From: an uncultured Candidatus Saccharibacteria bacterium
Lineage (GTDB): Bacteria; Patescibacteriota; Minisyncoccia; Phycocordibacterales; 2-02-FULL-43-11
NCBI GenBank assembly: GCA_964348785.1
Contig: CAYGDO010000002.1
Location: 66,238 to 130,237 of the forward strand
Length of the DNA: 64,000 nucleotides
Reading direction: 5' to 3'
The stretch's first letter is position 1, and each line of letters begins with the position of its first letter. The notes beneath the pieces are model-generated. The model saw only the letters and a list, made by a program, of their open reading frames with translations. It ran no database searches and had not been told where the DNA came from. The translations under genes were made by a program, and so were the position numbers. Of this stretch, positions 11,858-45,070 are shown in pieces.

Positions 11858-13262
11858 TAAGACCCAATTCTAATAACTGTTCTTTTGAGATTTCGCTTGG
11901 CGCACTCATCATCAAGTCCTTTCCTTCGCCAGTTTTTGGAAATGCAATAACTTCTCTAATGTTTGGCTCGTTCTGAAGCAACATTACTATTCTATCAATT
12001 CCAGGAGCAAAACCACCGTGTGGAGGAGCTCCATATTTAAAGGCTTCAATCATATGAGCAAACTTTCTCTGTTGATCTTCTTCTCCAACACCAAGCAAAT
12101 CAAAAACTTTTTTCTGAATTTCTGATTTATGAATTCTTATACTTCCTGAAGACAACTCATAACCATTTAAAACTAAGTCATATGAATTTGCTCTGATTTC
12201 AAAAAGATTTTTATCAGTAGGACCAGTTGCGGACATAAACTTTTCTTCATCCTCTTTTTTAATTGAACAAAATGGATGATGTGCCGCTTGAACTTTTCCG
12301 TCATCAGTTCTTTCAAACATTGGAAAATCTACAATCCAAGCGAAAGCTAATTCATCAGGATTGCTTTTGTCTTTTCGAAGATCCGGCTTATCAGATCCAT
12401 ATTTATCCATAGATTCTTTAAAAGTTAATCTTGGGAATGGAGTTTCTGAAATTTTCTTATTTGGATAAACAGTTTTAATAAGTTCAATAAACATTTTTTC
12501 TGTATAAACCAAAACATCTTCTTGTTCAACAAAAGACATTTCAAAATCCAACTGAGTGAATTCTGGCTGTCTGTCGCCTCTTGTATCTTCGTCTCTCATA
12601 CATCTAGCAATCTGAAAATACTTTTCAAAGCCAGCAACCATCGAAAGTTGTTTAAATTGTTGAGGTGATTGAGGTAAGGCGTAAAATCTTCCTTTCTCAA
12701 GTCTTGAAGGAACAACATACTCTCTTGAACCTTCCGGAGTTCCCTTCATAAGTATAGGAGTTTCAATTTCAATGAAATCATTCTTGTGCATGTAGTCTCT
12801 AAAAAAAGCAATAATCTTATCTCTCATTCTGATATTTTTTTGAAGTCTTGATCTTCTCAAATCCAAATAACGATACTTCAATCGAACATCTTCACTAATT
12901 TCTTTTCCGTCAGTTCTAAGATCAAAAGGTGGGGTCTCAGCTTTATTTAGTATTTCTATACCCAATATTTCAAGTTCAATAGAACCATTTTCTTCATCTT
13001 TGTTTATCATCTTTTCAGGTCTGCCGTTTACTTTGGCCTTTAGAGCAAGAACCCATTCTGATCTTATTTCACCGGCAACTTGATGTGCCTCTTTGTGGTT
13101 AGGAAGAACAACAGATTGAACCTTGCCCGTCATATCACGAAAATCAAAGAAAATTAATTTTCCATGATCACGTCTAATATCTACCCAACCCTTCACTAAA
13201 ATTTCTTTACCAATATTATTTTTTAAATCTCTGATATATGTCCTTTCCATATTTTTAGACAT
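11844..13262 (-). CDS. aspS: aspartate--tRNA ligase, short form lacking the full bacterial insertion domain
   Basis: Class IIb motif 2 'RCMRDEDTRGDRQPEFTQLDFEMSF' matches AspRS 'FRDEDLRADRQPEFTQID'. N-terminal OB fold. 472 aa. Confidence 0.85.
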   Translation of the reverse strand: MSKNMERTYIRDLKNNIGKEILVKGWVDIRRDHGKLIFFDFRDMTGKVQSVVLPNHKEAHQVAGEIRSEWVLALKAKVNGRPEKMINKDEENGSIELEILGIEILNKAETPPFDLRTDGKEISEDVRLKYRYLDLRRSRLQKNIRMRDKIIAFFRDYMHKNDFIEIETPILMKGTPEGSREYVVPSRLEKGRFYALPQSPQQFKQLSMVAGFEKYFQIARCMRDEDTRGDRQPEFTQLDFEMSFVEQEDVLVYTEKMFIELIKTVYPNKKISETPFPRLTFKESMDKYGSDKPDLRKDKSNPDELAFAWIVDFPMFERTDDGKVQAAHHPFCSIKKEDEEKFMSATGPTDKNLFEIRANSYDLVLNGYELSSGSIRIHKSEIQKKVFDLLGVGEEDQQRKFAHMIEAFKYGAPPHGGFAPGIDRIVMLLQNEPNIREVIAFPKTGEGKDLMMSAPSEISKEQLLELGLSVKK

Positions 13263-13687
13263 TAACTATTAAAATATTTTTCTAAAACTTTATAATATTC
13301 TGAATTTTCATAAAAATTCTTGTAATTATTTTTATCTACCCATTCAAATTTGTCATGTTCACTTGATAACTTCACTTCACCTTTTTTATACTTACATTTG
13401 AAAGCCACTAAATAAACTTTCTTGGGATAATTTCTATGATTTTTTGGAAACTCATTATACCAAACAGCAAATGGCCGACCGACTTCAATCTCCAAAGTTG
13501 TTTCTTCTCTAACTTCCCTTTCTAAGGCAGAGACCAGACTGTTGGGATTTTCCATCTTGACTTCATCTTCTTGAATTTTTCCACCAGGAAAATCGAGGCC
13601 TAGAACTGGATCCATTAAAACCAAAACTTTATTGTCTTTTTCTATAAAAGCTTTTTGACCTACACAAAATAATGCATCTTCTTTCAT
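13262..13687 (-). CDS. NUDIX hydrolase
   Basis: Nudix box 'GGKIQEDE...ALEREVREETTLEI'. Confidence 0.8.
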   Translation of the reverse strand: MKEDALFCVGQKAFIEKDNKVLVLMDPVLGLDFPGGKIQEDEVKMENPNSLVSALEREVREETTLEIEVGRPFAVWYNEFPKNHRNYPKKVYLVAFKCKYKKGEVKLSSEHDKFEWVDKNNYKNFYENSEYYKVLEKYFNS

Positions 13688-13718: not shown

Positions 13719-13758
13719 GCCCTCGCAAAAAACCAAAAACTGGTTTTTTGCGAGGGCG
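13719..13758 (-). terminator. 18-bp perfect-stem hairpin, minus-strand intrinsic terminator
   Basis: cgccctcgcaaaaaacca/tggttttttgcgagggcg with a 4-nt loop. Followed on the minus strand by CUUUAUUUU. Confidence 0.55.
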
Positions 13759-13984
13759 TTCTTCGCCAATTGGCGAAACGCGGTACCACCTCACTTTGTC
13801 TGGAATCATGATACAATCCCAAACCTCTTTAATGGCTTTTACAGTGCCAATTCTGTGGAGTTCTACATGGGAAAATACCCAATTCTTCTCCAAGCTCAGC
13901 CGTGTTTTCGGCTTCATCGCTACAAGGGTAGTTTATAACAAAAACATCTCTTTATATATGTTGACAAAACATCATTTTTAATAT

Positions 13985-16361: not shown

Positions 16362-19300
16362 TTACTTTAAACTTTTAAGTAAGCTCTTCAAACTGTTTGA
16401 GAGAGACTGCAAGTTGTTAATTAATTGTCCAGCTTGACGATCAAAATACGCCTGACCTGCTGACGGCTTAAAAAATGTATTGATGACAGTACCACCAGTT
16501 TTAGGATTAATTTGAAAAACCGCAAAAGAGTTCGACAAAGAATCGTAGGCCCTTGCCACACCTCCAGCATCTATTTTTAGTGAAGTTTTACCATTCATTG
16601 CGTCAGTTACAAAATCTCTAGCACCTTTTATATACTCCTTAGTATTTTTAAATCCAAATTTCTCTGCATGTTTCCCAGCATGATAAATTGCATTATCGGC
16701 CAACGTTAACTTGGTTCCTTTACTCCAGATACCCTCAAAGACTGGCACCACTTTCCCCGCGGGTATCTCCCCCGCAGTCAATGCCCCAACGGCCGCCATC
16801 CCATAATTTCCTTTATCTACATCATCTATTACTTGGCTGACAGCAACTTGCCCAAGTGGAGTGAGTAACGATTGGGCAAAGGAAGTTATCTGTGGAGCGT
16901 ACATTGTCAAAACCCCTGCAACAGCCACTAGAGCTGGAAGAAACCTCCCATCCGGGTCTTTGTAAGTTACGGGATTATTACCTCCATACGAATACGAATT
17001 CTGAACTTGAGGATTTAAAAGAGCTTCCTTCCCTTCTTTACTCATCCCCACTTCCCAAAACACCGGATCCTGATTAAGAAACTGCCCTCTTGCTCCATCG
17101 TAGTAACGAGCATTAAGGTAAGAAAGTCCTGTACTTGCATCAAACTCCTGCCCTATATACTTCCTCTGTTCTTTTGGAGAACCTCCTTCATCTGCCCTAA
17201 TACTACCATAAGGATAATAGTCGATTAATTCCACAACTTTACCAGCGGTATCTGTGGAGAGAGTAATAGAACCAAGGTGGTCGATTAAGTGGTAAGAGAG
17301 AGATGAAGATGACGTTAGGTCTATAGGCTTTAGCTGGCGGATTGTTCCTCCTTTTTTGATTAAGACGCCACCTCCTTTCTTAACTAGAAGCTTGGAGGCT
17401 TTGAGGTTGATGTAGAGAGTGGAGTCTGCTGTGACAGTAAGAACTTTACCTACAGGGACAATGACAGAAGCGGGAGCGGTAACGGAGCCCACAATAGTAC
17501 ACGAAGAAATCAGCGTGAAATCTCCTGTTTCTGGAATAACACAAGTACCAGCGTTTGCATTTGTTAACTTTGGAGCTACGGGTGTCTTTTTGTCAAAAGT
17601 GGAGAGTAACGTGTCGCCCACAAAAACGTGAGAAGTCTCGGACACAACAACGTCGTCAGAATTGTATCCTGCGTTGAAGTATTTAGATGGATACAAAGTA
17701 ACACCGCCTTTCCCATCAGAAACCTTCACCCTAGCGCCTCCGTGATCATAAGCGTAAGTGGAAGTGGCGAGACCGTTTGCAACAGAAATTAGGCGGTTGT
17801 TGTAGTCATATATATAGGAAATATTGCCAAACGAAATCAAATTACCACTTTTGTCGTAAGAGAGAGTGTTGGTTGCCACAGAACTACCGGTAACCGTCGA
17901 CGCGTGGGGGTTGGCGTAATCGGTACCATCATAAAAATAGTTAGTAGTTGTAAACTTCCCCACAGCACTACTAAATGGGGTATTTTCATTAAAAATAGGA
18001 GCTCCGAAAGCCGTGAGATGGTATGCATTCGCCGTAAAATCGTAATAATTATTGCCAAGTTTGTAGTAAGCAACAAGATTGGCCTCATTCCCACTCAACT
18101 CAGTAAGATAATTGCTATCCAAATCAACAAGCGAACGACTTGTATTCCAAAATCGGACATCGTCAACAAGACCGTCCCAATTATGCGGATTTGGGAAAGT
18201 GGCCTTACCGATAGCCAATTCATTAAACCCGCCATAACCTCTACCGACAGCAAGAGTGGGGCCTTTCACCAAAGTATGCCCGCTGCTAGTTGATGTTGCC
18301 AAATACAAGTTCATTTCTGTGCCATTGTAAGTTCCGACAATATGGTACCAAGAGCCGACAGAGAGGGTGGTGTCATAAATTATTCTTGCCCCCCCAACTC
18401 CTTCTATATGCCTGTCAAAATTAATGTGGTGAGATCCGTCAGTATAGCTTGTAGATAAAGAGTAACCGACATTGGTCACAGCATCCTGTTGAGACGCAAT
18501 AATATTGAACCCAGCGGAAGGCAAACTTTCAGGTTTTATCCAAGCCTCTATAGTAATAGGTCCCCCAGAAATACCAGCATTAGTTGGGACGGAAGCATAC
18601 TGACTAGAGTCTCCTTCAACATCTAAAGAATATGGGTTGAGTGAAACTTGCCCTTCAATTTTACTAATAATATTTCCAAGCGGATTGTAAGCAAAAGATT
18701 GTTGATTTGGCGTCGCCAATGCATCTACCAATCGATACAAATCATCATACTTATACGTCGCGATTTTCTTTGTGTTGGTTTCCGAATTATCCACAATCTG
18801 CAAAATATTTCCGACAGAATCGTAAGTGTAGGACAAATTTTGAAGTTGTAAGTTGTTAGCTGAAAGAGTCTTTTTATTTGTTAAGCGATAAAGTCGCGCT
18901 GGATCATAGGTATTTGTAGCAACAACACCATTACCATAAGTAATCGTTTTTAGCTGACCAAGTGGCGAATAATCAAAAGCGCCGATTTGCGTTACAGGTG
19001 TAGTTGTGGAAACTCCAGTTGCCGATATTGAATCAACTAAACCTGCGGAATTGTATATGTATGAAGTTTTTTTGGAATCAACGCCGGTCATTTCTGTCAC
19101 ACCTCCTCCTAAATTGTAGAGATAACTTGAAATGAAAGTTTTACCTCCAATAATTTTAGTTTCAGTTTTTGCTTGCCCCGCGGGGGTGTATGCGTAGCTA
19201 GTACTATTCATTTCTAAATTTGCCCCGACAGAATCATCGGCATAAGAAACCGCACAAAGCTTACCGATGCCGAAATCACAGGCGTCATAAGTGTAAGTTG

Positions 19301-22300
19301 TCCTAACACCTACAGGGATAGTTGAAATTGGAGAAGAAGCTGCCTCAATTTTCCCCAATCTATTCAACGAATCGTAAGTATAAACTGTTCGCGTACCATT
19401 CGGATCGGTTTTCCCCGTAAGATTGCCGACATCGTCATACTGATATGAGTAAACCCCGAAAGCGGTGTCACTTGGCGTGTGCAAATCTTCCGCCAAAAGT
19501 CGTCTACCGGAAAAGTCATAAGTGAAATTACGAATATTTTGAAGCGCATCTGTGATTTTTACAAGATTTCCTAAAGAATCATATTCATAAAATGTGGAGT
19601 AGGTGTCGGGATAATTAAATTCATCCACACGAGTAAGTCGGCCAAAAACATCTTTATAATATATTTTACTTTTACCGAGCGTGTCGGTAATTTTTGTCTG
19701 ACCGGGACTGAAATATGTATTGGTCGTCCCTAAAGCGTCAGTTTTCTGCACATTCCTACCGAGTGCATCATAAGTAAAGCTAGTATACAAAGAACTGTCA
19801 CTCGTGGCAGAAGTTTTACCTGAACCGTCACTAAAATATGGCAAAGATTGTTTTCCAACGCGACCCTCAGAATCATAAATTATGTCTGACACAATAAAAG
19901 TATTGGGATTTTCAGATTGTTTTCGAGTTTGTATCTCCCTACCAATGCCATCAAAATAAGTGTAGGTTTCGTTTGAAAGAGTACTGTTTATGAAATCAAC
20001 TTTTTTAACAGAAATATTATTTGGAGTATCTGTGTATTGATAAATTGTTTTTGTCACTAAAGAAGCCGAAATACCCGAAACCACGACGGAATTTCCGTCA
20101 GGCTGTTTTTCTTGAAGAGTACGGCCAAAAGCGTCGTATGCTTTGGAATAAATTTGATTATTTGAATCGGTGATTTGAATTGGCTTTCCTAGAGCGTAAT
20201 CGTAAAGATAAGTGGTTTTTTGATTCAAATGATTAGTGACTGAAATCGGAAAAAGATTGTATGTGTCGTAAGAATAACCGGTAGAATTTCCATTTGCATC
20301 GGTTGATGTTGCCACAAGCGCAAACGGATTGTATGTTGCAGAAGTAATGGAATACCTACCATCAGAAATCAAAGATTCTTGTTTTGTGCCATTGCCTTCT
20401 AAAAGTTGACCAAAAGGTAAATCATCAAAATATGTTTTTGATTCCGAAATCACATTTCCAGATTGCGAATTAGTAGTTTTATGAGATACCTCGTAATGAA
20501 TTTGTATTGAAGTTGAAGTGGAAACGCCCGCGTTTGAAGCGTACTCAACATTAGTTATAGTTTTGTCATTTCCAATATCAACAAAAGAATAAGAAGCGAG
20601 CGTGTTTGTTGACGCGGAAGTTACCTCGCCATAATCAACAGAAGAAATTAAATTGCCATTTGAGGTATCGTATGAATATTCCGTAGCGTGATCTTTGTGA
20701 GAAGTCGTGCCGTCAAAACTTTCTTCAATCTTTTTAGAAAGATACACAAATACCGGTGCGGAAGAAGTAAAGCCTGCTGAATTTACTCCCGCTAAAGGAG
20801 ACTCACTATAAATATTTTGATTTCTGGCGAACAACTTACCCTCCCTATCAAAAACTTCTGTTTTATATACAGAGCCGATTTTGCCGTAACTATCCCCTGT
20901 TTCTCCAGTTGAAGAGTTATCACCATTCCCCTGATGAAAATATGAAATTGTCACAGATTTTCCGGAATCTTTTGTAACCTTGCCAAATCCGGCAAATTTT
21001 CTATCGTGCGAACCGTTAAAAAATCCTTGCCCATCTGCGTAAGTGTATGTATCTACTTGTGGCTCTCCACCCACGCCATCGGTTGTAGTTATTTTGGACA
21101 CAATCCAAAGAACTGTTGGCAGTTTTAGATTAAACCGCTCACCCGAAGCGGAAGTTTTGTAATCAATAGATGTTTTTCCGCCTTGCGGGTAAGTTATAGT
21201 TTTTAAAATATCCGCTCTTGTTGTGGGGCCACTTGGAATATCAACGAGGGTGTCACCGTTGGTGTCATAGTAGTCGGTCAGTTGATAGGAAAAATTCCAC
21301 TTCCAATTGTAAGGATTTATTTTAATAAAATATGGAGACTTGAGGGTTGAACTTTTTACAAATCCATTTCCTGTATTTATGTAAACTTCATTATAATCCC
21401 CTGTTGTGTACCCGTTATCAAAATTTGGGTTGTTTGGCAAAACCCAACCACGCAAAACATCAACTAGCCCGTCAGCGTTAATATCCAGATACCGAACCCC
21501 CATATCATTACCGTCACCATCAGTCATCATTAATGTGTGGTCAGGTGAATCACCAAAAATAGGAACCATTGGTCCAGTTAACCCCCCATCTCCAGTACCT
21601 ATACGAAAAGAACTGTATCTATCGCTAGTCTTTGTATCATCTAAACCATCACCATTAACATCCATCGCACCCACTCGCCTCCTCTCCTCCCACCCAGATA
21701 TTTCGCGTCCATAAATTTCTGGTAGGCCATCTCCATTTGTGTCTGCAACGAAAGAGCCTTTGGCTACTAGCAAAGGAGTGGTAGTTGATATGTATGTATA
21801 ACTATTATCCAAACTATTAATACCGCTATTCAGATAAAGTGTCGGTGGATTGGGAGGAGGAGGACAGGTGGCGTTGGTACAACTACCTGCATTAAAGAGT
21901 GTAACCGGAACACCGAAAAAATCAGTTAAACCGTCACCATTCAAATCCGCAATACGCGCACCACTATCCTCTGGGCCTGAACCGTTTGAACCCCTAGTAT
22001 GATAAGCAAATCTTAAATTAGGTAGGGAATTTGAACCCGCTACGCCTAACTTGTTCCACTCCACCTGAATATTAAAACTATTTGATTCATAAGGGTTAAT
22101 TCCAAGCACAAATGAATCTGTGTAGCCATCACCATTCAAATCAGCATAAACATCTCCCCCTCTTTCTGGACCGTAAAAGAAAGAGCCGAGAGCCCAACTA
22201 AACGTACCGGATGAAATAGCAGGCTCAAGCCCCGTCGGTAAAACAGGATTTTCAAACCCCTTCGTGTACTCAAAAGTTGTTTGCGGTAAAGTTGTTGCAA

Positions 22301-23615
22301 CGTTTTGGGAGTCGTAGCCAGTTTCAGTAATTCCTGAAAGGATTGAACGTACGCCGTTTACACCAACTCCGTAGGCAAATTCGTATTTCTTTTTCAAAAT
22401 ATCACTGACACGAATTTCAATTATTTTGAGTCGTTTGGCATTGGTACTTAAAAATGCAAACTTGTATGAAGAAATAGCACTGTCTGAACGAGTATCTTCA
22501 TATACAAAAGTGACTTTGTAAATTCCAGATACAACTTCTCCGGAATTTGCCTGATGATTGGTATAAGTAATTTCAGTTGGATATACCTGACCGCCAGTTA
22601 CCGTATAGTTATATGAAATGTAATTACCGTTTGAATCACGGACTTCATCTAGATACCATTTAGCAACACGAGAAGCATTTGCAGGGTCCGCGTTTCGTGA
22701 AGTTGCCACCGAACCGAAAGTGTAGACTCTGCCGTTTTTATCATAAACCTTCCAACTCGTAGTGGTGGCGTTGTAAACATATTTCAAAAATTCGCCGGAA
22801 TCAACGCGAGGTTGATATAAACCAGCAATTGTAGTTGAGGCTAATTCACCGGATAAGCTGGAACTGAAATAATCTTGACCATACATTACTATATTTCCCT
22901 GCTTATTGATTCTCTCAATTGATGGAATGTTAAAATCCCAACCATACCCCATCGTATTTATGTTGGAATTCTCGGACGAGTTATATGAAATATTTAAAGA
23001 TGTCTCAACACCTGCCCTACCGGAAGGTGTAACAATCGGATAGGAATATGAAAGCGCTCCCGAGGAAGCATTGGCTTCGGGAAGAGTGGTTTTTCTATAA
23101 GCAAAATTGGAATTATCGTAAGTGGTTGGCTTGTTTTCCAACTGAGCGCTAGTGGCTTCAATTTCTGGAGGTAACAAGTCTTGCGCGTCCGGAGAAACCT
23201 CTGGAATTTCAGTGTCCAACTTTGGAGCTTCCGGAGCAATCTCGGGCACCACTTCAGTTTTTGGATTTGCATCTACAGTTGTTTCGGGAGTTATTTGTGT
23301 CGGGTCAGGTAAAATAGTAGAGCCTATTTCAGAATTTTCTGATGCAGAACTGCTTGGTGTTGATGTATCAGGAGAAACGTTGGTCTCAGCTGGGGTAGAT
23401 GGAGATGCAGTTTGGTCAGAGGAGGTTTCAACGGAAGCTACGGGGACAGGAGGTTGCGAAGCAACCTCCTGCGCAAACGCCACAGCAATCGGTTGCATTA
23501 AAAAAGCAACCACCAAAAAACTGGTTACGATTTTTTGCGTATTTGATTTTCTTATTTTCTTTGTAGAAACAATTGAAAAAAAGAAATTCATAGAATTTTT
23601 ACTGACACTTCCCAA
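16362..23615 (-). CDS. Tc-toxin-like TcB/TcC fusion / RHS polymorphic toxin: signal, S/T/P linker, SpvB domain, FG-GAP beta-propeller, YD repeats with LamG insertion, RHS core, C-terminal toxin domain
   Basis: SpvB-like N-terminal region. 'ADLNGDGLTD/DVNGDGLDD/LDINADGLVD' FG-GAP repeats. Many YD repeats ('YTYDALGR','YEYDSLGNL','YQYDDVGNL'). RHS core 'YHLIDHLGS...YYPYG...RYYDGARGQFLNQDPV...NPVTYKDPDGRF'. About 195-aa tip follows. Confidence 0.85.
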   Translation of the reverse strand: MGSVSKNSMNFFFSIVSTKKIRKSNTQKIVTSFLVVAFLMQPIAVAFAQEVASQPPVPVASVETSSDQTASPSTPAETNVSPDTSTPSSSASENSEIGSTILPDPTQITPETTVDANPKTEVVPEIAPEAPKLDTEIPEVSPDAQDLLPPEIEATSAQLENKPTTYDNSNFAYRKTTLPEANASSGALSYSYPIVTPSGRAGVETSLNISYNSSENSNINTMGYGWDFNIPSIERINKQGNIVMYGQDYFSSSLSGELASTTIAGLYQPRVDSGEFLKYVYNATTTSWKVYDKNGRVYTFGSVATSRNADPANASRVAKWYLDEVRDSNGNYISYNYTVTGGQVYPTEITYTNHQANSGEVVSGIYKVTFVYEDTRSDSAISSYKFAFLSTNAKRLKIIEIRVSDILKKKYEFAYGVGVNGVRSILSGITETGYDSQNVATTLPQTTFEYTKGFENPVLPTGLEPAISSGTFSWALGSFFYGPERGGDVYADLNGDGYTDSFVLGINPYESNSFNIQVEWNKLGVAGSNSLPNLRFAYHTRGSNGSGPEDSGARIADLNGDGLTDFFGVPVTLFNAGSCTNATCPPPPNPPTLYLNSGINSLDNSYTYISTTTPLLVAKGSFVADTNGDGLPEIYGREISGWEERRRVGAMDVNGDGLDDTKTSDRYSSFRIGTGDGGLTGPMVPIFGDSPDHTLMMTDGDGNDMGVRYLDINADGLVDVLRGWVLPNNPNFDNGYTTGDYNEVYINTGNGFVKSSTLKSPYFIKINPYNWKWNFSYQLTDYYDTNGDTLVDIPSGPTTRADILKTITYPQGGKTSIDYKTSASGERFNLKLPTVLWIVSKITTTDGVGGEPQVDTYTYADGQGFFNGSHDRKFAGFGKVTKDSGKSVTISYFHQGNGDNSSTGETGDSYGKIGSVYKTEVFDREGKLFARNQNIYSESPLAGVNSAGFTSSAPVFVYLSKKIEESFDGTTSHKDHATEYSYDTSNGNLISSVDYGEVTSASTNTLASYSFVDIGNDKTITNVEYASNAGVSTSTSIQIHYEVSHKTTNSQSGNVISESKTYFDDLPFGQLLEGNGTKQESLISDGRYSITSATYNPFALVATSTDANGNSTGYSYDTYNLFPISVTNHLNQKTTYLYDYALGKPIQITDSNNQIYSKAYDAFGRTLQEKQPDGNSVVVSGISASLVTKTIYQYTDTPNNISVKKVDFINSTLSNETYTYFDGIGREIQTRKQSENPNTFIVSDIIYDSEGRVGKQSLPYFSDGSGKTSATSDSSLYTSFTYDALGRNVQKTDALGTTNTYFSPGQTKITDTLGKSKIYYKDVFGRLTRVDEFNYPDTYSTFYEYDSLGNLVKITDALQNIRNFTYDFSGRRLLAEDLHTPSDTAFGVYSYQYDDVGNLTGKTDPNGTRTVYTYDSLNRLGKIEAASSPISTIPVGVRTTYTYDACDFGIGKLCAVSYADDSVGANLEMNSTSYAYTPAGQAKTETKIIGGKTFISSYLYNLGGGVTEMTGVDSKKTSYIYNSAGLVDSISATGVSTTTPVTQIGAFDYSPLGQLKTITYGNGVVATNTYDPARLYRLTNKKTLSANNLQLQNLSYTYDSVGNILQIVDNSETNTKKIATYKYDDLYRLVDALATPNQQSFAYNPLGNIISKIEGQVSLNPYSLDVEGDSSQYASVPTNAGISGGPITIEAWIKPESLPSAGFNIIASQQDAVTNVGYSLSTSYTDGSHHINFDRHIEGVGGARIIYDTTLSVGSWYHIVGTYNGTEMNLYLATSTSSGHTLVKGPTLAVGRGYGGFNELAIGKATFPNPHNWDGLVDDVRFWNTSRSLVDLDSNYLTELSGNEANLVAYYKLGNNYYDFTANAYHLTAFGAPIFNENTPFSSAVGKFTTTNYFYDGTDYANPHASTVTGSSVATNTLSYDKSGNLISFGNISYIYDYNNRLISVANGLATSTYAYDHGGARVKVSDGKGGVTLYPSKYFNAGYNSDDVVVSETSHVFVGDTLLSTFDKKTPVAPKLTNANAGTCVIPETGDFTLISSCTIVGSVTAPASVIVPVGKVLTVTADSTLYINLKASKLLVKKGGGVLIKKGGTIRQLKPIDLTSSSSLSYHLIDHLGSITLSTDTAGKVVELIDYYPYGSIRADEGGSPKEQRKYIGQEFDASTGLSYLNARYYDGARGQFLNQDPVFWEVGMSKEGKEALLNPQVQNSYSYGGNNPVTYKDPDGRFLPALVAVAGVLTMYAPQITSFAQSLLTPLGQVAVSQVIDDVDKGNYGMAAVGALTAGEIPAGKVVPVFEGIWSKGTKLTLADNAIYHAGKHAEKFGFKNTKEYIKGARDFVTDAMNGKTSLKIDAGGVARAYDSLSNSFAVFQINPKTGGTVINTFFKPSAGQAYFDRQAGQLINNLQSLSNSLKSLLKSLK

Positions 23616-28593: not shown

Positions 28594-29310
28594 TTAATGA
28601 TTATACGTTTTTACTTTAGAGAGTTCTGACACAATTTTTAAAATATTTTTACTAGTTTCTTTATAATAATTAATCTCTGGGTCATGATCATTCTTAAGAA
28701 CCAGATCGCGCGCGTAAATAGGTCTCCCAAAAATCACTCGAACAAATCTTTTTCTCAAGACAAAGTCCCAAAAACCCATCTTATATAAATCAGTAAGCAA
28801 AATAGGAACAATTGGCAATTCTGTTTTTTCAGCAAGAAAAGTAACACCTCCTCTCGCCTCTTCAATCATAACATTTCCAGTCCTGGTTGTTTTACCTTCT
28901 GGAAATATCAAAAGACTATGTCCTTTTTGAATAATGTGAATGTGACGAGATAAAGAAATACCATAATCTTTATATCCCGATATTACAGAATGGGCTCCCC
29001 ATAATTTAAATACGGTCCCGCCATAAAAAATTTGTCTCCAACCACTAGTTTTATAAAAATCTTTTGGTCTTGAAGTGTAAAACATTGGCATAAACTTAGA
29101 TAAAAAAGGCAAACTAGCCGGAACCAAAACGGGATCAAGCTCACCTGTATGATTAGCAGCAAAAATTACGCCTGGAGATAATTTTTGTAAATTATCTAAA
29201 CCCTCCACTTTTAAGTGGAGGAAAAATCTAAAAAGTGGCCGAGTAATCGGCCATATTGCTGTTTGCAAAATTAAGGGGGTAAAGAGAAAAATTTTTTCTA
29301 TATTTTTCAT
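28594..29310 (-). CDS. plsC: 1-acyl-sn-glycerol-3-phosphate acyltransferase
   Basis: 'AANHTGELDP' (HX4D) and 'FPEGKTTRTG' LPLAT motifs. Confidence 0.8.
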   Translation of the reverse strand: MKNIEKIFLFTPLILQTAIWPITRPLFRFFLHLKVEGLDNLQKLSPGVIFAANHTGELDPVLVPASLPFLSKFMPMFYTSRPKDFYKTSGWRQIFYGGTVFKLWGAHSVISGYKDYGISLSRHIHIIQKGHSLLIFPEGKTTRTGNVMIEEARGGVTFLAEKTELPIVPILLTDLYKMGFWDFVLRKRFVRVIFGRPIYARDLVLKNDHDPEINYYKETSKNILKIVSELSKVKTYNH

Positions 29311-29367
29311 CTAATTTTGATGCCCGTATTTTAACATAAAACAACAAAAATAATACAAATTGTAAAG

Positions 29368-29395
29368 TTGCCAAATAAATAAGCAAGAGTAATAT
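29368..29395 (+). promoter_or_regulatory. candidate promoter TTGCCA, 16-nt spacer, TAATAT, driving the ncRNA candidate
   Basis: Sequence match placed about 7 nt before the GC-rich RNA start. Confidence 0.35.
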
Positions 29396-29400
29396 TTTCA

Positions 29401-29758
29401 ATGTCTTCGGTGTCGTGAGAAGGAAACGGAGCCACTGATGGGTCTCCCTGCGGAGATACAGAGGGCTCGTGTGATTCCCAAAAAAGTACCCGAAAGGGAC
29501 ATAAGGGAAGAGCCTAAACCCCGGCTTGGCTGGGGGGTTGAGGGACCTCAACATCACGGTATCTACGAACGGTCGCCGGAATAGGTTCGGCGTGACTTAG
29601 TAGGAGAACCGAGAGGTATCCCAAGTAGGTTCGTGCCATGCGACCGAATCCGTCCCAGAACTCTGGGATAAGGCTAAACTCTGAGCGCCCTTGCGAGCGC
29701 GCTCCTCCGAAGACCCGGACCCCCACGTTGCACAAGCGACGTGGGGTTTTGTTTTTTT
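29401..29758 (+). ncRNA. candidate structured non-coding RNA, class unassigned (about 355 nt)
   Basis: GC-rich island on the plus strand amid minus-strand genes. Long-range perfect 8-bp closing stem GUCUUCGG (29403-29410) with CCGAAGAC (29707-29714). GNRA hairpin CCC-GAAA-GGG. Ends with strong terminator ccccacg..cgtgggg plus U-run at 29721-29758. Annotated ORFs here are short and overlapping. Confidence 0.45.
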
Positions 29759-29765
29759 AAAAAAC

Positions 29766-31289
29766 CTAGAAAGAACTCAGCCCCGAATACTCCATAAGCA
29801 AATATTGAACTCTTTTCATTAAACGATCATCCTGATATTTTTCATACCCAACCGAATAAATTTTTCCATTTTCATTATTCCAAATCTCGTCAAAAAACTT
29901 TTGCGCATCTTTAAAAACCATTTCATCCTTGTCGCCCAAAACCAAAACGTTAGTTTCTAAATTATAATTTCCAAGATTTCTTCTTGTTAAATTTGCAGAG
30001 CCTTGTATGAGAGAATAATGATTACTTTTTCTAAAATTAAATGTTTTGTCACTTAAAGACGCCCCTACGGCATCTCTTTTAAATAAAATCAACTTGGAAT
30101 GACACTGCTCACCATGAGTTAAACACCATCTAACTTCAGTGTTATTTGATTTAAGAAGAACCTCGCTCGCCACTTGCCTATTTGGCACACCATCTTTTTC
30201 CCTACCAAAAGCATCTTTGTTGGGATCAAAAAAAAGTCTTATTTTCACCCCTCGCCTATCAGCCTTTTTTATGGCCCTCACAATATCTCTGTCAGAAATA
30301 TAAAACATTGCCATATCAAGACCGTCTCCACTTTGGAGAGTGCTCATCTCCTCCAAAATAGATTTTTTTATTGATTTCTCTGTTAAAAGTTGAACTCTCA
30401 AAGAAGAGGTCACTGTCTCAAAAATCTTTTTGTTAGAAAAATTTGGTTCTACAAAATTGCCATTTGAAAAATCAACAACTAATTTCTCGCTCTGAAGAAC
30501 ATCTCTCCATAATTTTTCATCCACAACTATGGCCGTATTACTGTGAGCACTTGATCCATCGTGAGGATTAGCAGAAGTTATAAGCACAGAAACTTTAATA
30601 TTATTGCTTTCTAACTTATCAGCCAAAACCACCTTCCTGTGGTTAGCCTTAAAATTAAAAAGGGAAAGGTAGGTTCTAATCCCAAGTTTTTGTCCACCTT
30701 GTTTAAAAGGGTTGGGTAAAAAACCAACCTCAGAACTATTAGGAAACCAACCAAAAAAAGCTCGCCAAAAACCACTATAAAGCGGGTTACTATCCCTTAA
30801 AACCTTCAAATTCGTGATTGTAACGCTTATTCCTGCGTCTTTAAGCTCCTCTAGGTGAATTGCCGTAATACCGCCATAAATCTCATTTATAGGGTCAGTA
30901 ATTACTTGTATGACAATTTCTGGATTTTGACGTTTTTTGGTTATTAATTTTTGAGTTAAATCATAAGATAAAGATTTGTAGGAAGAAGTGGCCGTGCCAA
31001 GCATTCCATTAAACAAAAACATATCCATAAGGATATACGAATGAGCTTCATCTATCATCTTAAAAACTTCATCAAAAATCTGTTGGTCCATTTTTCTACT
31101 GGAGGAATCGTCAATGTATGTCTTATCAGACAAAAATCGGACACTTTCTGAAGAAACATTGAAAACCGTTCCGGAAAAATTCACTCCTTTTGGCAAGAGT
31201 TTTACAAGACCATAAATAGCAAAAAAGACATAAATCAGAATTAAAACAAGAAAAAGTTTTTTACAAAAATTTTTAATTTTTAGAAACAT
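29766..31289 (-). CDS. phospholipase D family protein (cardiolipin synthase-like), N-terminal TM
   Basis: Two HKD-like motifs: 'HRKVVLAD...' and 'HSKLILFK...GSANLTRRN'. Confidence 0.65.
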   Translation of the reverse strand: MFLKIKNFCKKLFLVLILIYVFFAIYGLVKLLPKGVNFSGTVFNVSSESVRFLSDKTYIDDSSSRKMDQQIFDEVFKMIDEAHSYILMDMFLFNGMLGTATSSYKSLSYDLTQKLITKKRQNPEIVIQVITDPINEIYGGITAIHLEELKDAGISVTITNLKVLRDSNPLYSGFWRAFFGWFPNSSEVGFLPNPFKQGGQKLGIRTYLSLFNFKANHRKVVLADKLESNNIKVSVLITSANPHDGSSAHSNTAIVVDEKLWRDVLQSEKLVVDFSNGNFVEPNFSNKKIFETVTSSLRVQLLTEKSIKKSILEEMSTLQSGDGLDMAMFYISDRDIVRAIKKADRRGVKIRLFFDPNKDAFGREKDGVPNRQVASEVLLKSNNTEVRWCLTHGEQCHSKLILFKRDAVGASLSDKTFNFRKSNHYSLIQGSANLTRRNLGNYNLETNVLVLGDKDEMVFKDAQKFFDEIWNNENGKIYSVGYEKYQDDRLMKRVQYLLMEYSGLSSF

Positions 31290-31348: not shown

Positions 31349-31582
31349 TTAAATCGGCACAATGACAAATCTGTCATTTTCCTGGCACAGTTCGAGCTCG
31401 CGCAAAAACGCCCTGACAACACCAAGCTCAACCCACGTTTTATCATCAACGTGAATGACACTAGTTCCAAGCAACCTGACCAAGTCCTCGTCGCGCCTAA
31501 ATGGTTTAAGAAACCGTTTTGCCCTCTTGCCCAGTTTCAATCCCCTTTTCCGTAATCTATGCAAGAAATTTTTAACAGTCAC
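31349..31582 (-). CDS. small basic hypothetical protein (77 aa) in a GC-rich island
   Basis: GTG start preceded by GGAGGT RBS ('ggaggtataagGTG'). Elevated GC. The overlapping plus-strand ORF 31346..31555 is rejected. Confidence 0.45.
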   Translation of the reverse strand: MTVKNFLHRLRKRGLKLGKRAKRFLKPFRRDEDLVRLLGTSVIHVDDKTWVELGVVRAFLRELELCQENDRFVIVPI

Positions 31583-44575: not shown

Positions 44576-45070
44576 TCAGTCCTTCCTCATTCTATAAGGA
44601 CTGGGCCCGTCTGGAGATCGGTCCAATAACTCTTGAACCCGATCCCTCATCCGAGGTTCCATTTTCTGAAGCAACCCCGCCATCGTGTCCGGACAAGCAG
44701 GTGAAGTCTCAGCGGTCAGTTGTGGCCAACCACCATCACCGTCCGCCGGATCCTGCATAGGCCAACCGTTGCCAGTTTCGGCCGTAACGGGAGGTGTAGA
44801 AGCCGGGACAAGTTCCACATCCGGCTCTCCAAACATTCGACACAAAACTGTCAGAATATTATTCTCCGCATCAATCCCAATCCCTAAAAACCTTCCCAGG
44901 GCATCCGAGACTACGGTAGAATCTGGGACACACTCACCGTGCGCAACGAAGCCCTGCTCTCCAACACTTACCCACTGACCGAACATCGGCGAACCGTCGA
45001 GCTGAAGACCGAGAATTCTCTGACGAGCTTCAGAAGTCAAAAAATTCACACCAGCTTTTTCATTACTCAT
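44576..45070 (-). CDS. hypothetical protein in a strongly GC-rich island
   Basis: ATG preceded by AGGAGG RBS (8-nt spacing). GC far above neighbours. Own terminator. Confidence 0.5.
   Translation of the reverse strand: MSNEKAGVNFLTSEARQRILGLQLDGSPMFGQWVSVGEQGFVAHGECVPDSTVVSDALGRFLGIGIDAENNILTVLCRMFGEPDVELVPASTPPVTAETGNGWPMQDPADGDGGWPQLTAETSPACPDTMAGLLQKMEPRMRDRVQELLDRSPDGPSPYRMRKD

Follow-up and report, generated by a model that had tools for sequence, protein, structure and literature searches.

A structured RNA gene between cls and plsC of Patescibacteria with a putative origin in domain I of 23S ribosomal RNA

Introduction

Between two minus-strand genes of a Patescibacteria contig lies a plus-strand segment of high GC content, and the question that it raises is what kind of gene it is. 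The segment (29403-29714) belongs to a stretch of 64,000 nucleotides (nt) from an uncultured Candidatus Saccharibacteria bacterium (contig CAYGDO010000002.1, positions 66,238 to 130,237), which was analysed at its full length and is called the window throughout. A first-pass annotation, made from the letters alone, had described a GC-rich structured RNA gene with a promoter, a closing helix and a terminator, and had implied that the RNA belongs to no known class. The description was borne out by the present analysis. The implied lack of a class was not, since the RNA appeared, in covariance-model and profile alignments, as a homologue of part of domain I of 23S ribosomal RNA (rRNA). Few large bacterial RNAs combine a complex fold with the lack of an assigned role, and new biology has repeatedly come from such RNAs.

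A recurrent RNA with helices kept by compensatory change

Contigs with homologous loci were fetched via relatives of cls, the gene of a cardiolipin-synthase-like protein, and plsC, the gene of a PlsC-type acyltransferase. The same RNA was found between cls and plsC, in the same position and orientation, on five further metagenomic Patescibacteria contigs, a recurrence that the first-pass annotation had proposed to look for. The copies of loci L025, L024 and L034 are complete, and in L035 and L036 a contig end truncates the copy. The Cls proteins of the carrier lineages are 68-78% identical to that of the window, and the RNAs are only about 70% identical. The GC content of the RNA copies is 50-57% in genomes of 32-36% GC.

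A 14-helix model was derived by hand, and the six copies were re-aligned to a covariance model, R1, which comprises 318 positions and 77 of the model's pairs. R1 scores the window RNA 307.8 bits at 29403-29715. The elements of the window copy are as follows.

29403..29714, plus strand: RNA core (312 nt), from the P1 5' strand through the P1 3' strand
29403..29410, plus strand: P1 5' strand GUCUUCGG, pairing exactly with CCGAAGAC at 29707-29714; the closing helix, 8 base pairs (bp)
29707..29714, plus strand: P1 3' strand CCGAAGAC, complementary to 29403-29410
29417..29419, plus strand: P1b 5' strand GAG, pairing with CUC at 29679-29681; GAG/CUC, GGG/CCC, GGA/UCC
29429..29468, plus strand: P2 (GAGCC/GGCUC) with the variable tip P2.1 at 29442-29457; inserted relative to 23S
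29475..29509, plus strand: P3 (UUCCC/GGGAA) with the tip P3.1, GUACCC-GAAA-GGGAC, at 29486-29500; 23S helix GAUUCCcc..ggGGaau
29511..29514, plus strand: Pd 5' strand AGCC, pairing with GGCU at 29672-29675; long-range, closing the multi-helix core
29519..29535, plus strand: P4 hairpin CCCCGGC-UUG-GCUGGGG; double-sided change in 4 of 7 pairs, 100% of cells paired
29542..29622, plus strand: P5-P6-P7 arm; a reduced 23S H18-H19, with H20 missing
29542-29549 with 29613-29622, plus strand: P5, GGGACCUC with GAGGUAUCCC; long-range, invariant, '(((-(((((' in the large-subunit (LSU) rRNA model
29558-29564 with 29605-29610, plus strand: P6, GGU[A]UCU with AGAACC; 3 co-varying pairs
29572-29596, plus strand: P7 hairpin, loop AUAGG; 5 co-varying pairs
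29624..29648, plus strand: P8 hairpin (29628-29645), flanked by AGUA (29624-29627) and GAA (29646-29648); 2 pairs co-vary
29652..29679, plus strand: P9 hairpin GUCCCAG-AACU-CUGGGAU (29652-29669), then AAGGCUAAAC (29670-29679); 3 co-varying pairs, 100% of cells paired
29683..29704, plus strand: P10 hairpin; 3 pairs co-vary, as GAGCGC/GCGCUC, GAAUCC/GGAUUC and GAUGCUCU/AGAGCAUC

The helices are kept by compensatory change. In the structure of 80 pairs, 89% of the cells are standard pairs, and double-sided change was seen in 27 of the 80, against 12.8±2.4 in column shuffles (0 of 500 shuffles reached the observed count) and 2-5 when the partners were slid by 1-3 columns. P4, P6, P7, P9, P10 and P2.1 have at least three co-varying pairs each. 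When RNAalifold was run independently on the same alignment, P2, P2.1, P3, P4, P8 and P9 were recovered, and the terminal helix was missed because two rows are truncated. In an all-against-all scan of the columns, the only new stack with two co-varying pairs was P1b, a nested helix of 3 bp. All supported helices are nested.

Conservation is distributed unevenly over the fold. Peripheral hairpins are gained and lost among the copies, even between copies that are 87% identical, where whole hairpins come and go; the junction strands between the helices are invariant. In L024 and L034, P1 reads GUCUUGGUG/CACCAAGAC, so that one base is gone from each strand, the helix is extended by more pairs and the pairing is kept. 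P2 changes from GAGCC/GGCUC to GGAGAU/AUCUCC in L025, and its tip is missing in L025 and L036. The GNRA hairpin CCC-GAAA-GGG, to which the first-pass annotation had drawn attention, is present in P3.1 and is a weaker feature than had been implied, as it is a variable peripheral element that is replaced in L034 and deleted in L024. Pd is invariant in all copies. The P8 flanks AGUA and GAA presumably form a strand pair like that of loop E or an S-turn.

Two pairings were tried and set aside. A local hairpin GUUGAGG/CCUCAAC, which belongs to the minimum free energy (MFE) fold of the window copy, has four broken cells and no compensation, and the long-range P5 was preferred to it. A tertiary pair between the loop of P7 and the J10/1 strand (AGG/CCU and UGG/CCA) goes back to one evolutionary event only and shares positions with P1 and P10, and it is not claimed.

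Relation to domain I of 23S rRNA

Positions 7-216 of L036 match positions 233-470 of the Rfam family LSU_rRNA_bacteria (RF02541) with 40 bits and an E-value of 7.7e-11 in a search of 400 nt, and with 38.8 bits and an E-value of 1e-8 in a search of 22 kb. In the first pass, an Rfam assignment to a known class had been named as the result that would overturn the annotation. What was found goes half of that way: the LSU match of L036 exists, and it lies below the gathering score (40 against 50 bits) and spans 238 of the 2925 model positions.

The match was followed helix for helix. In the LSU alignment, GAUUCCC../..GGGAA corresponds to P3, the bracketed GcCc/GgCu to Pd and the next hairpin to P4; GGaccgcc../..ggcgguauCC corresponds to P5, GAGUA-[hairpin]-GAAu to P8 with its flanks, and the last hairpin with AAGgCuAAa to P9 with the next strand. 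The long-range helices Pd and P5 had been inferred by hand without covariation, and both are found in the LSU model; they are therefore real 23S helices. Pd is the helix written as '[[[[ ]]]]' in the Rfam LSU consensus, and it also appears in the RNAalifold consensus of true 23S segments. The counterpart of P3 lies at positions 233-270 of the LSU model and at nt 231-288 of E. coli 23S, and the P1b stretch aligns with the 23S segment 'GAGGAAAAGAAA'. The P8 unit is equivalent to 23S 'GAGUA[cggCgggg..ccccGccg]GAAu', and P9 with the strand that follows is equivalent to the last 23S hairpin plus the universal AAGGCUAAAUAC. We take these helices to be approximately H13, H14, H16, H18-H19, H21 and H22 in the standard numbering, with P3 in the H13 region, P4 at an H16-like position, P8 in the H21 region and P9 as H22.

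Because only one copy matched in Rfam, an independent test was made with a second covariance model, R2, built solely from eight true 23S segments spread across phyla (E. coli, Ralstonia, Azospirillum, Bacillus, Cetobacterium, C. difficile, Vescimonas and Streptococcus). R2 ranks the family RNA first in each locus tested. Its scores, with E-values that are to be read as rough, were 29.1 bits for L036 (E 3e-9), 20.8 bits for L025 (E 1.5e-7), 19.5 bits for L034 (E 6.2e-7), 13.1 bits for L024 (E 1.1e-4) and, with the filters off, 12.0 bits for 29448-29686 of the window (E about 2e-4).

Profile comparison gave a collinear picture as well. With nhmmer, a profile of the family has two collinear matches to E. 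coli 23S rRNA, at nt 231-288 and 371-443, the latter aligned to family positions 221-295 with an E-value of 0.009. The inner arms look alike by eye, with GGUCUGGAAAGGCC-GCCAUAGGAGGUAACAGCC in 23S and GCCGGAAUAGGUUCGGC-GUGACUUAGUAGGAGAACC in the RNA. A blastn comparison of the window copy with E. coli rnpB, 16S, 23S and 5S gave scattered, non-significant words only. Taken together, the alignments identify the RNA as a homologue of a sub-domain of 23S domain I, at about nt 200-445 of the E. coli sequence.

Departure from ordinary rRNA

Neither a complete nor a standard rRNA is encoded at the locus. A full-length 23S rRNA has domains 0-VI and a peptidyl-transferase centre; here, the RNA is closed by its own helix strand at 29707-29714 and would stop at the terminator, at 29758. 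P1 is absent from the 23S architecture, and P10, which sits where true 23S runs on into CUGACUGACCGAUAG, is not part of it either. The universal 23S loop AGUAGYGGCGAGCGAA is replaced in the window copy, shortened in L034 and deleted in L024.

In an approximate alignment with a reference set that consists of 23S sequences from outside the candidate phyla radiation (CPR), the RNA keeps 41-59% of the 95 positions at which the eight true 23S sequences do not vary, while true 23S sequences left out in turn keep 94-99%. For lineages this closely related, the RNA also changes at a far higher pace than expected of rRNA. The locus is not an ordinary rRNA gene, since its RNA stops at about 315 nt and has lost about half of the universally invariant positions. 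No other match to LSU or small-subunit (SSU) rRNA was found in the window, and protein genes flank the RNA.

A predicted separate transcription unit

The signals of transcription and the flanking genes are as follows.

29360..29395, plus strand: promoter region, in which the invariant 11-mer TTGTAAAGTTG (29360-29370) overlaps the -35 hexamer
29721..29758, plus strand: intrinsic terminator, CCCCACGUUGC-ACAA-GCGACGUGGGG and then UUUUGUUUUUUU
28594-29310, minus strand: plsC (PlsC-type acyltransferase), divergent from the RNA gene
29766-31289, minus strand: cls (cardiolipin-synthase-like phospholipase D protein), convergent with the RNA gene

A consensus scan of the plus strand placed a sigma-70-type promoter in front of the RNA, with the -35 hexamer TTGCCA at 29368-29373, a spacer of 16 nt and the -10 hexamer TAATAT at 29390-29395, and the predicted transcription start is at about 29401-29403. 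Both hexamers and the upstream TTGTAAAGTTG are kept in all six homologous loci, and the AT-rich spacer from plsC to the promoter is not conserved among them. A terminator scan found a stem of 11 bp with 8 G-C pairs at 29721-29746, followed by TTTTGTTTTTTT; the whole terminator (to 29758) ends 8 nt before the stop codon (29766) of the convergent cls. The stem co-varies across three lineages, as CCCCACG/CGTGGGG, CCCTGCG/CGCAGGG and CCCGGCG/CGCCGGG. The promoter, the closing helix with its exact complementarity and the terminator with its U-run had all been proposed in the first pass, and each of them is conserved. The RNA would be about 315 nt long, or about 355 nt with the terminator hairpin.

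The RNA segment has a GC content of 55-59%, with 57% for 29403-29714 (window, 35.6%), and an MFE of -149 kcal/mol (z = -4.1), and none of 100 shuffles folded equally well. From these signals, 29403-29714 on the plus strand is recognised as a separate transcription unit, judged at the level of sequence.

The flanking genes are all on the minus strand. The neighbours of the RNA are plsC, cls and, farther along, dnaJ and dnaK, rather than a ribosomal-protein operon, and no plus-strand gene lies downstream of it. The best named relative of the window Cls in the genome collection is a Candidatus Nomurabacteria metagenome-assembled genome, with 50% identity, which points to a Paceibacteria-like host within the Patescibacteria. 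A protein of 77 amino acids (aa), encoded at 31349-31582 on the minus strand between dnaJ and cls, is very basic in the N-terminal third of its sequence and could be assigned to no family. It co-occurs with cls and the RNA wherever the DNA upstream of cls was available (window, L024 and L025), and it is absent where those are absent. This conserved basic protein is a possible partner of the RNA.

Distribution

The RNA was found at a few loci only. In 24 further Patescibacteria loci and in the rest of the window, R1 has no match. Syntenic relatives without the RNA gene were found: L037-L042 have dnaJ beside plsC, and L043-L048 and L026-L029 have other arrangements. In L026, an uncalled island of 540 nt with up to 60% GC (1360-1897) lies between two genes, and its sequence is unrelated to the RNA. 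A pattern scan of metagenomes for further homologues gave four chance matches only, and three scans of viral contigs gave either no matches or chance ones. In BLAST searches of phage, plasmid and E. coli collections, no match to the RNA was obtained. A genome scan based on cls returned distant relatives only, and these are without the RNA.

Other RNA classes

In the Rfam search of the whole window, no tRNA, rRNA or other family was matched at gathering score, and nothing fell on the RNA at E<=5; searches with three sub-ranges of the window copy gave nothing relevant at E<=10. Therefore, standard annotation would leave the RNA without a label, and the same holds for a second GC-rich island of the window at 2262-2726.

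RNase P was tested explicitly, since Lui et al. have reported that the RNase P RNAs of CPR bacteria often fall under the Rfam cut-offs (PMC8172020). Neither CR-I (GAGGAAAGUCC) nor CR-V (ACAGAAnnnGGCUUA) has a match within two mismatches in 29403-29714, and there is no similarity to E. coli rnpB. As all supported helices are nested, the RNA has no P4 pseudoknot. For transfer-messenger RNA (tmRNA), with its tRNA-like domain and tag reading frame, ARAGORN found none in the window, and there was no Rfam match at E<=10. For signal recognition particle (SRP) RNA, with its helix-8 GNAR loop and GGAAGCAGCC strand, there was no Rfam match either, and the only GNRA hairpin of the RNA is the dispensable one, absent in L024. 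The first-pass annotation had likewise failed to fit RNase P, SRP RNA or tmRNA.

Three further candidates were rejected. The GCCACUG of the window copy, which could have pointed to a cobalamin riboswitch, is not conserved. No D-arm, T-arm or Rfam match was found that would point to an intron-containing tRNA or a group I intron. For a riboswitch-controlled antisense RNA to cls, there is no co-varying antiterminator.

Interpretation

We consider it highly probable that the locus is a selected, rRNA-derived structured RNA gene. In the proposed history, a branch of 23S domain I would have been copied, taken out of the surrounding rRNA and closed off by a helix new to it, P1. The copy would have gained P2 and P10, lost H20 and the universal H13 loop, and then evolved fast under selection for its fold. 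The RNA may mimic nascent domain I and bind uL4, uL24 or another domain-I binder or assembly factor, and it would then act in trans, either as a decoy or buffer of such proteins or as a feedback sensor of ribosome building. A trans-acting decoy function is what we infer from the sequence pattern.

Two observations bear on this mechanism. Constraint is strongest on the junction strands, which the RNA and 23S have in common. In addition, uL24 and uL4 bind H18-H20 cooperatively, at nt 280-360 (PMC13351717), and mimicry of rRNA sites is an established bacterial way to sense ribosomal proteins (r-proteins) (PMC7247131, PMC3616713). Since a reduced H18-H19 arm and the invariant junction strands are kept, and H18-H20 is the primary site at which uL24 and uL4 bind, mimicry seems the likeliest of the mechanisms, although it is put forward tentatively and we would sooner bet against this specific mechanism than for it. 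For the two parts combined, a selected paralogue of an rRNA domain that mimics 23S, we adopt a compromise figure of about 0.5.

Several points weigh against this combined reading. In Rfam, no LSU match was reported for the window copy or for L024, L025 and L034. The window copy matches the models of true 23S weakly (12 bits, filters off), and the E-values of the models built here are rough; in one locus, short AT-rich junk was given a score of about 10 bits. The covariation was counted on an alignment fitted to the model itself. The family consists of five to six short metagenomic contigs from about three independent lineages, so that the covariation counts rest on few events. The arm that would hold the uL4/uL24 site is strongly reduced, with H20 lost and many invariant positions of nt 299-347 changed, and therefore the binding of uL4 and uL24 in particular is uncertain. 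To our knowledge, moreover, the known rRNA mimics that serve r-proteins are all short cis elements in mRNA leaders, and none is a whole sub-domain encoded in trans.

Other readings have to be weighed against mimicry. An rRNA-derived RNA might have taken on a new function unrelated to r-proteins, as a protein scaffold, a self-assembling RNA or a ribozyme, in which the 23S junctions only hold the fold. The loss of about half of the universally invariant 23S positions, of H20 and of the H13 loop would agree with this, as would the addition of P1, P2 and P10, which are kept by covariation, and the company of the gene, which travels with cls and the 77-aa basic protein and not with ribosomal genes. 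Nothing, however, points to any specific alternative role, and the most conserved nucleotides are exactly those common with 23S, as mimicry predicts; we regard this reading as unlikely, yet worth keeping in mind. It is more improbable that the RNA is a true component of the ribosome, in a clade whose 23S lacks the H13-H22 branch and whose 50S subunit receives that branch in trans from this gene, far away from the remaining 23S rRNA, as rRNA in pieces. In favour of it, the RNA follows, by homology and in collinear order, a single self-contained branch of domain I, base helix P1b included, and its high GC content, strong promoter and selection on helices are what rRNA would show; in addition, the rRNA genes of CPR bacteria are often unlinked and rearranged (PMC8172020). 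Against it stand the identity of about 70% between close relatives, the hairpins that come and go between copies 87% identical and the loss of 41-59% of the invariant positions. Both ends of the RNA pair with each other and not with another rRNA piece, the syntenic relatives L037-L048 are without such a gene at the site, and a survey of CPR 23S rRNA reports losses of H9, H63 and H78 rather than H13-H22 (PMC9297842).

A decaying, functionless relic of a former 23S gene, which would account for a partial and strongly diverged rRNA-like sequence outside an rRNA operon and for its narrow distribution, is a shade less credible again. A relic would hardly retain promoter and terminator across lineages with 68-78% Cls identity, or 27 pairs kept by double-sided change with the new helices P1 and P10 co-varying, or a GC content of 50-57% in genomes of 32-36% GC, and the neighbouring non-coding spacer is not conserved. 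We give very little weight to a diverged RNase P RNA, SRP RNA, tmRNA or 6S RNA that Rfam misses in Patescibacteria. The low Rfam scores of CPR RNase P RNAs (PMC8172020) allow for it, and a length of about 315 nt with a closing helix is compatible with RNase P; but these families have no Rfam match at E<=10 in a search of 331 nt, the supported helices are nested without a P4 pseudoknot, an A-rich strand precedes the first hairpin, and there is positive evidence for an origin in 23S domain I. Least credible of all, and close to negligible, is a small protein on either strand. Open reading frames (ORFs) of 40-109 codons do exist, as expected in GC-rich sequence, among them minus-strand ORFs of 109 aa and 73 aa and a plus-strand ORF of 48 aa. 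Their frames and places differ from homologue to homologue, the insertions and deletions are not in threes, the sole Pfam match is below threshold (Steroid_dh, 18.3 bits against a cut-off of 22.6, E 0.0024), and gene callers put no gene at the site on any of five contigs. The opposite-strand ORFs 29228-29557 and 29514-29735, already listed in the first pass, are thus judged spurious, with no credible Pfam match and no conserved frame, and the view that no conserved protein is encoded here was upheld.

If the RNA is a selected derivative of rRNA, its origin would be traceable: a sub-domain of rRNA duplicated, capped, given a promoter and a terminator, and kept by selection. A trans-acting mimic would be a new way to sense or buffer uL4 and uL24, which act early in assembly, in organisms with reduced ribosomes and few assembly factors, and rRNA domains would also be raw material for new non-coding RNA genes. 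Should the RNA instead belong to the ribosome, its gene would be the first case in a bacterium of an rRNA gene that is split and dispersed. In practice, Rfam at gathering score misses the RNA completely, and gene callers may set spurious ORFs on it.

Other features of the window

The second GC-rich, RNA-like island, at 2262-2726 on the plus strand, has a closing helix of GGCGAAGA (2262-2269) with UCUUCGCC (near 2685-2692) and its own terminator at about 2696-2725. Its MFE is -164 kcal/mol (z = -4.45). It has no Rfam match at E<=10 and shows scattered, non-collinear similarities of 10-35 nt to E. coli 16S and 23S rRNA. R1 does not match it, and it belongs to a different family. The island is probably the first of the candidates in the first-pass annotation.

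At 44576-45070 on the minus strand, an ORF of 164 aa has about 62% GC (window, 35.6%), a good ribosome-binding site, a terminator and no Pfam family, and it gives the impression of a protein gene of foreign or unusual composition, not of an RNA. An element like a T-box leader lies at 13749-13926 on the minus strand, with 48.3 bits and an E-value of 1.6e-7 against a gathering score of 93, and its specifier region is much shortened. The ORF directly downstream of it (13262-13687) encodes a NUDIX hydrolase, which is an unusual partner for a T-box. At 16362-23615 on the minus strand, a protein of 2417 aa with SpvB, TcdB-middle, FG-GAP, RHS-repeat and laminin-G-like domains is of the polymorphic-toxin type and stands in a reduced genome.

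Comparison with known systems

The RNase P RNAs of CPR bacteria (PMC8172020) resemble the RNA in being GC-rich, structured and about 300-400 nt long, in escaping the Rfam thresholds and in having a terminal closing helix. The RNA described here differs from them in lacking CR-I, CR-V and the P4 pseudoknot, and in the order of its helices.

Separately encoded rRNA pieces, such as 5.8S rRNA, the chloroplast 4.5S rRNA and the mitochondrial rRNA pieces of Chlamydomonas and Plasmodium (PMC8660880, PMC3382252), share with it a discrete gene for a segment of LSU rRNA only. Such pieces retain the conserved nucleotides of rRNA and reconstitute it by pairing with one another, whereas here the ends pair with each other, the universal positions are poorly kept and close relatives are without the gene. 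We know of no rRNA pieces of such a kind in free-living or symbiotic bacteria.

The leaders of r-protein mRNAs (L4/S10, L20, L1 and S15; PMC7247131, PMC3616713, PMC6097659) likewise reproduce part of an rRNA structure outside the ribosome, and by analogy the proposed use would be the same, recognition by r-proteins to balance the supply of r-protein and rRNA. These leaders are about 40-150 nt long, usually owe their likeness to rRNA to convergence and not to homology, and work in cis from the 5' untranslated region of the operon that they regulate. The RNA described here would differ in that a separate gene encodes it and in that its roughly 315 nt copy, by homology, an entire sub-domain. In the literature searched, the coverage of which was incomplete, no bacterium was found for which a stand-alone copy of an rRNA sub-domain, encoded in trans, had been described.

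The nearest relative remains 23S rRNA domain I itself (RF02541, about positions 200-470). The two share, in collinear order, GAUUCCC../..GGGAA, AGCC/GGCU, the next hairpin, GGGACC../..GGUAUCCC with an inner hairpin of GGAA loop, AGUA-hairpin-GAA, and the last hairpin followed by AAGGCUAAA, and the junction sequences are common to both. The RNA differs in that it amounts to about 8% of a 23S rRNA, has its own promoter, P1 closing helix and terminator, has gained the hairpins P2 and P10 and lost H20 and the universal H13 loop, and is encoded outside any rRNA operon, between cls and plsC.

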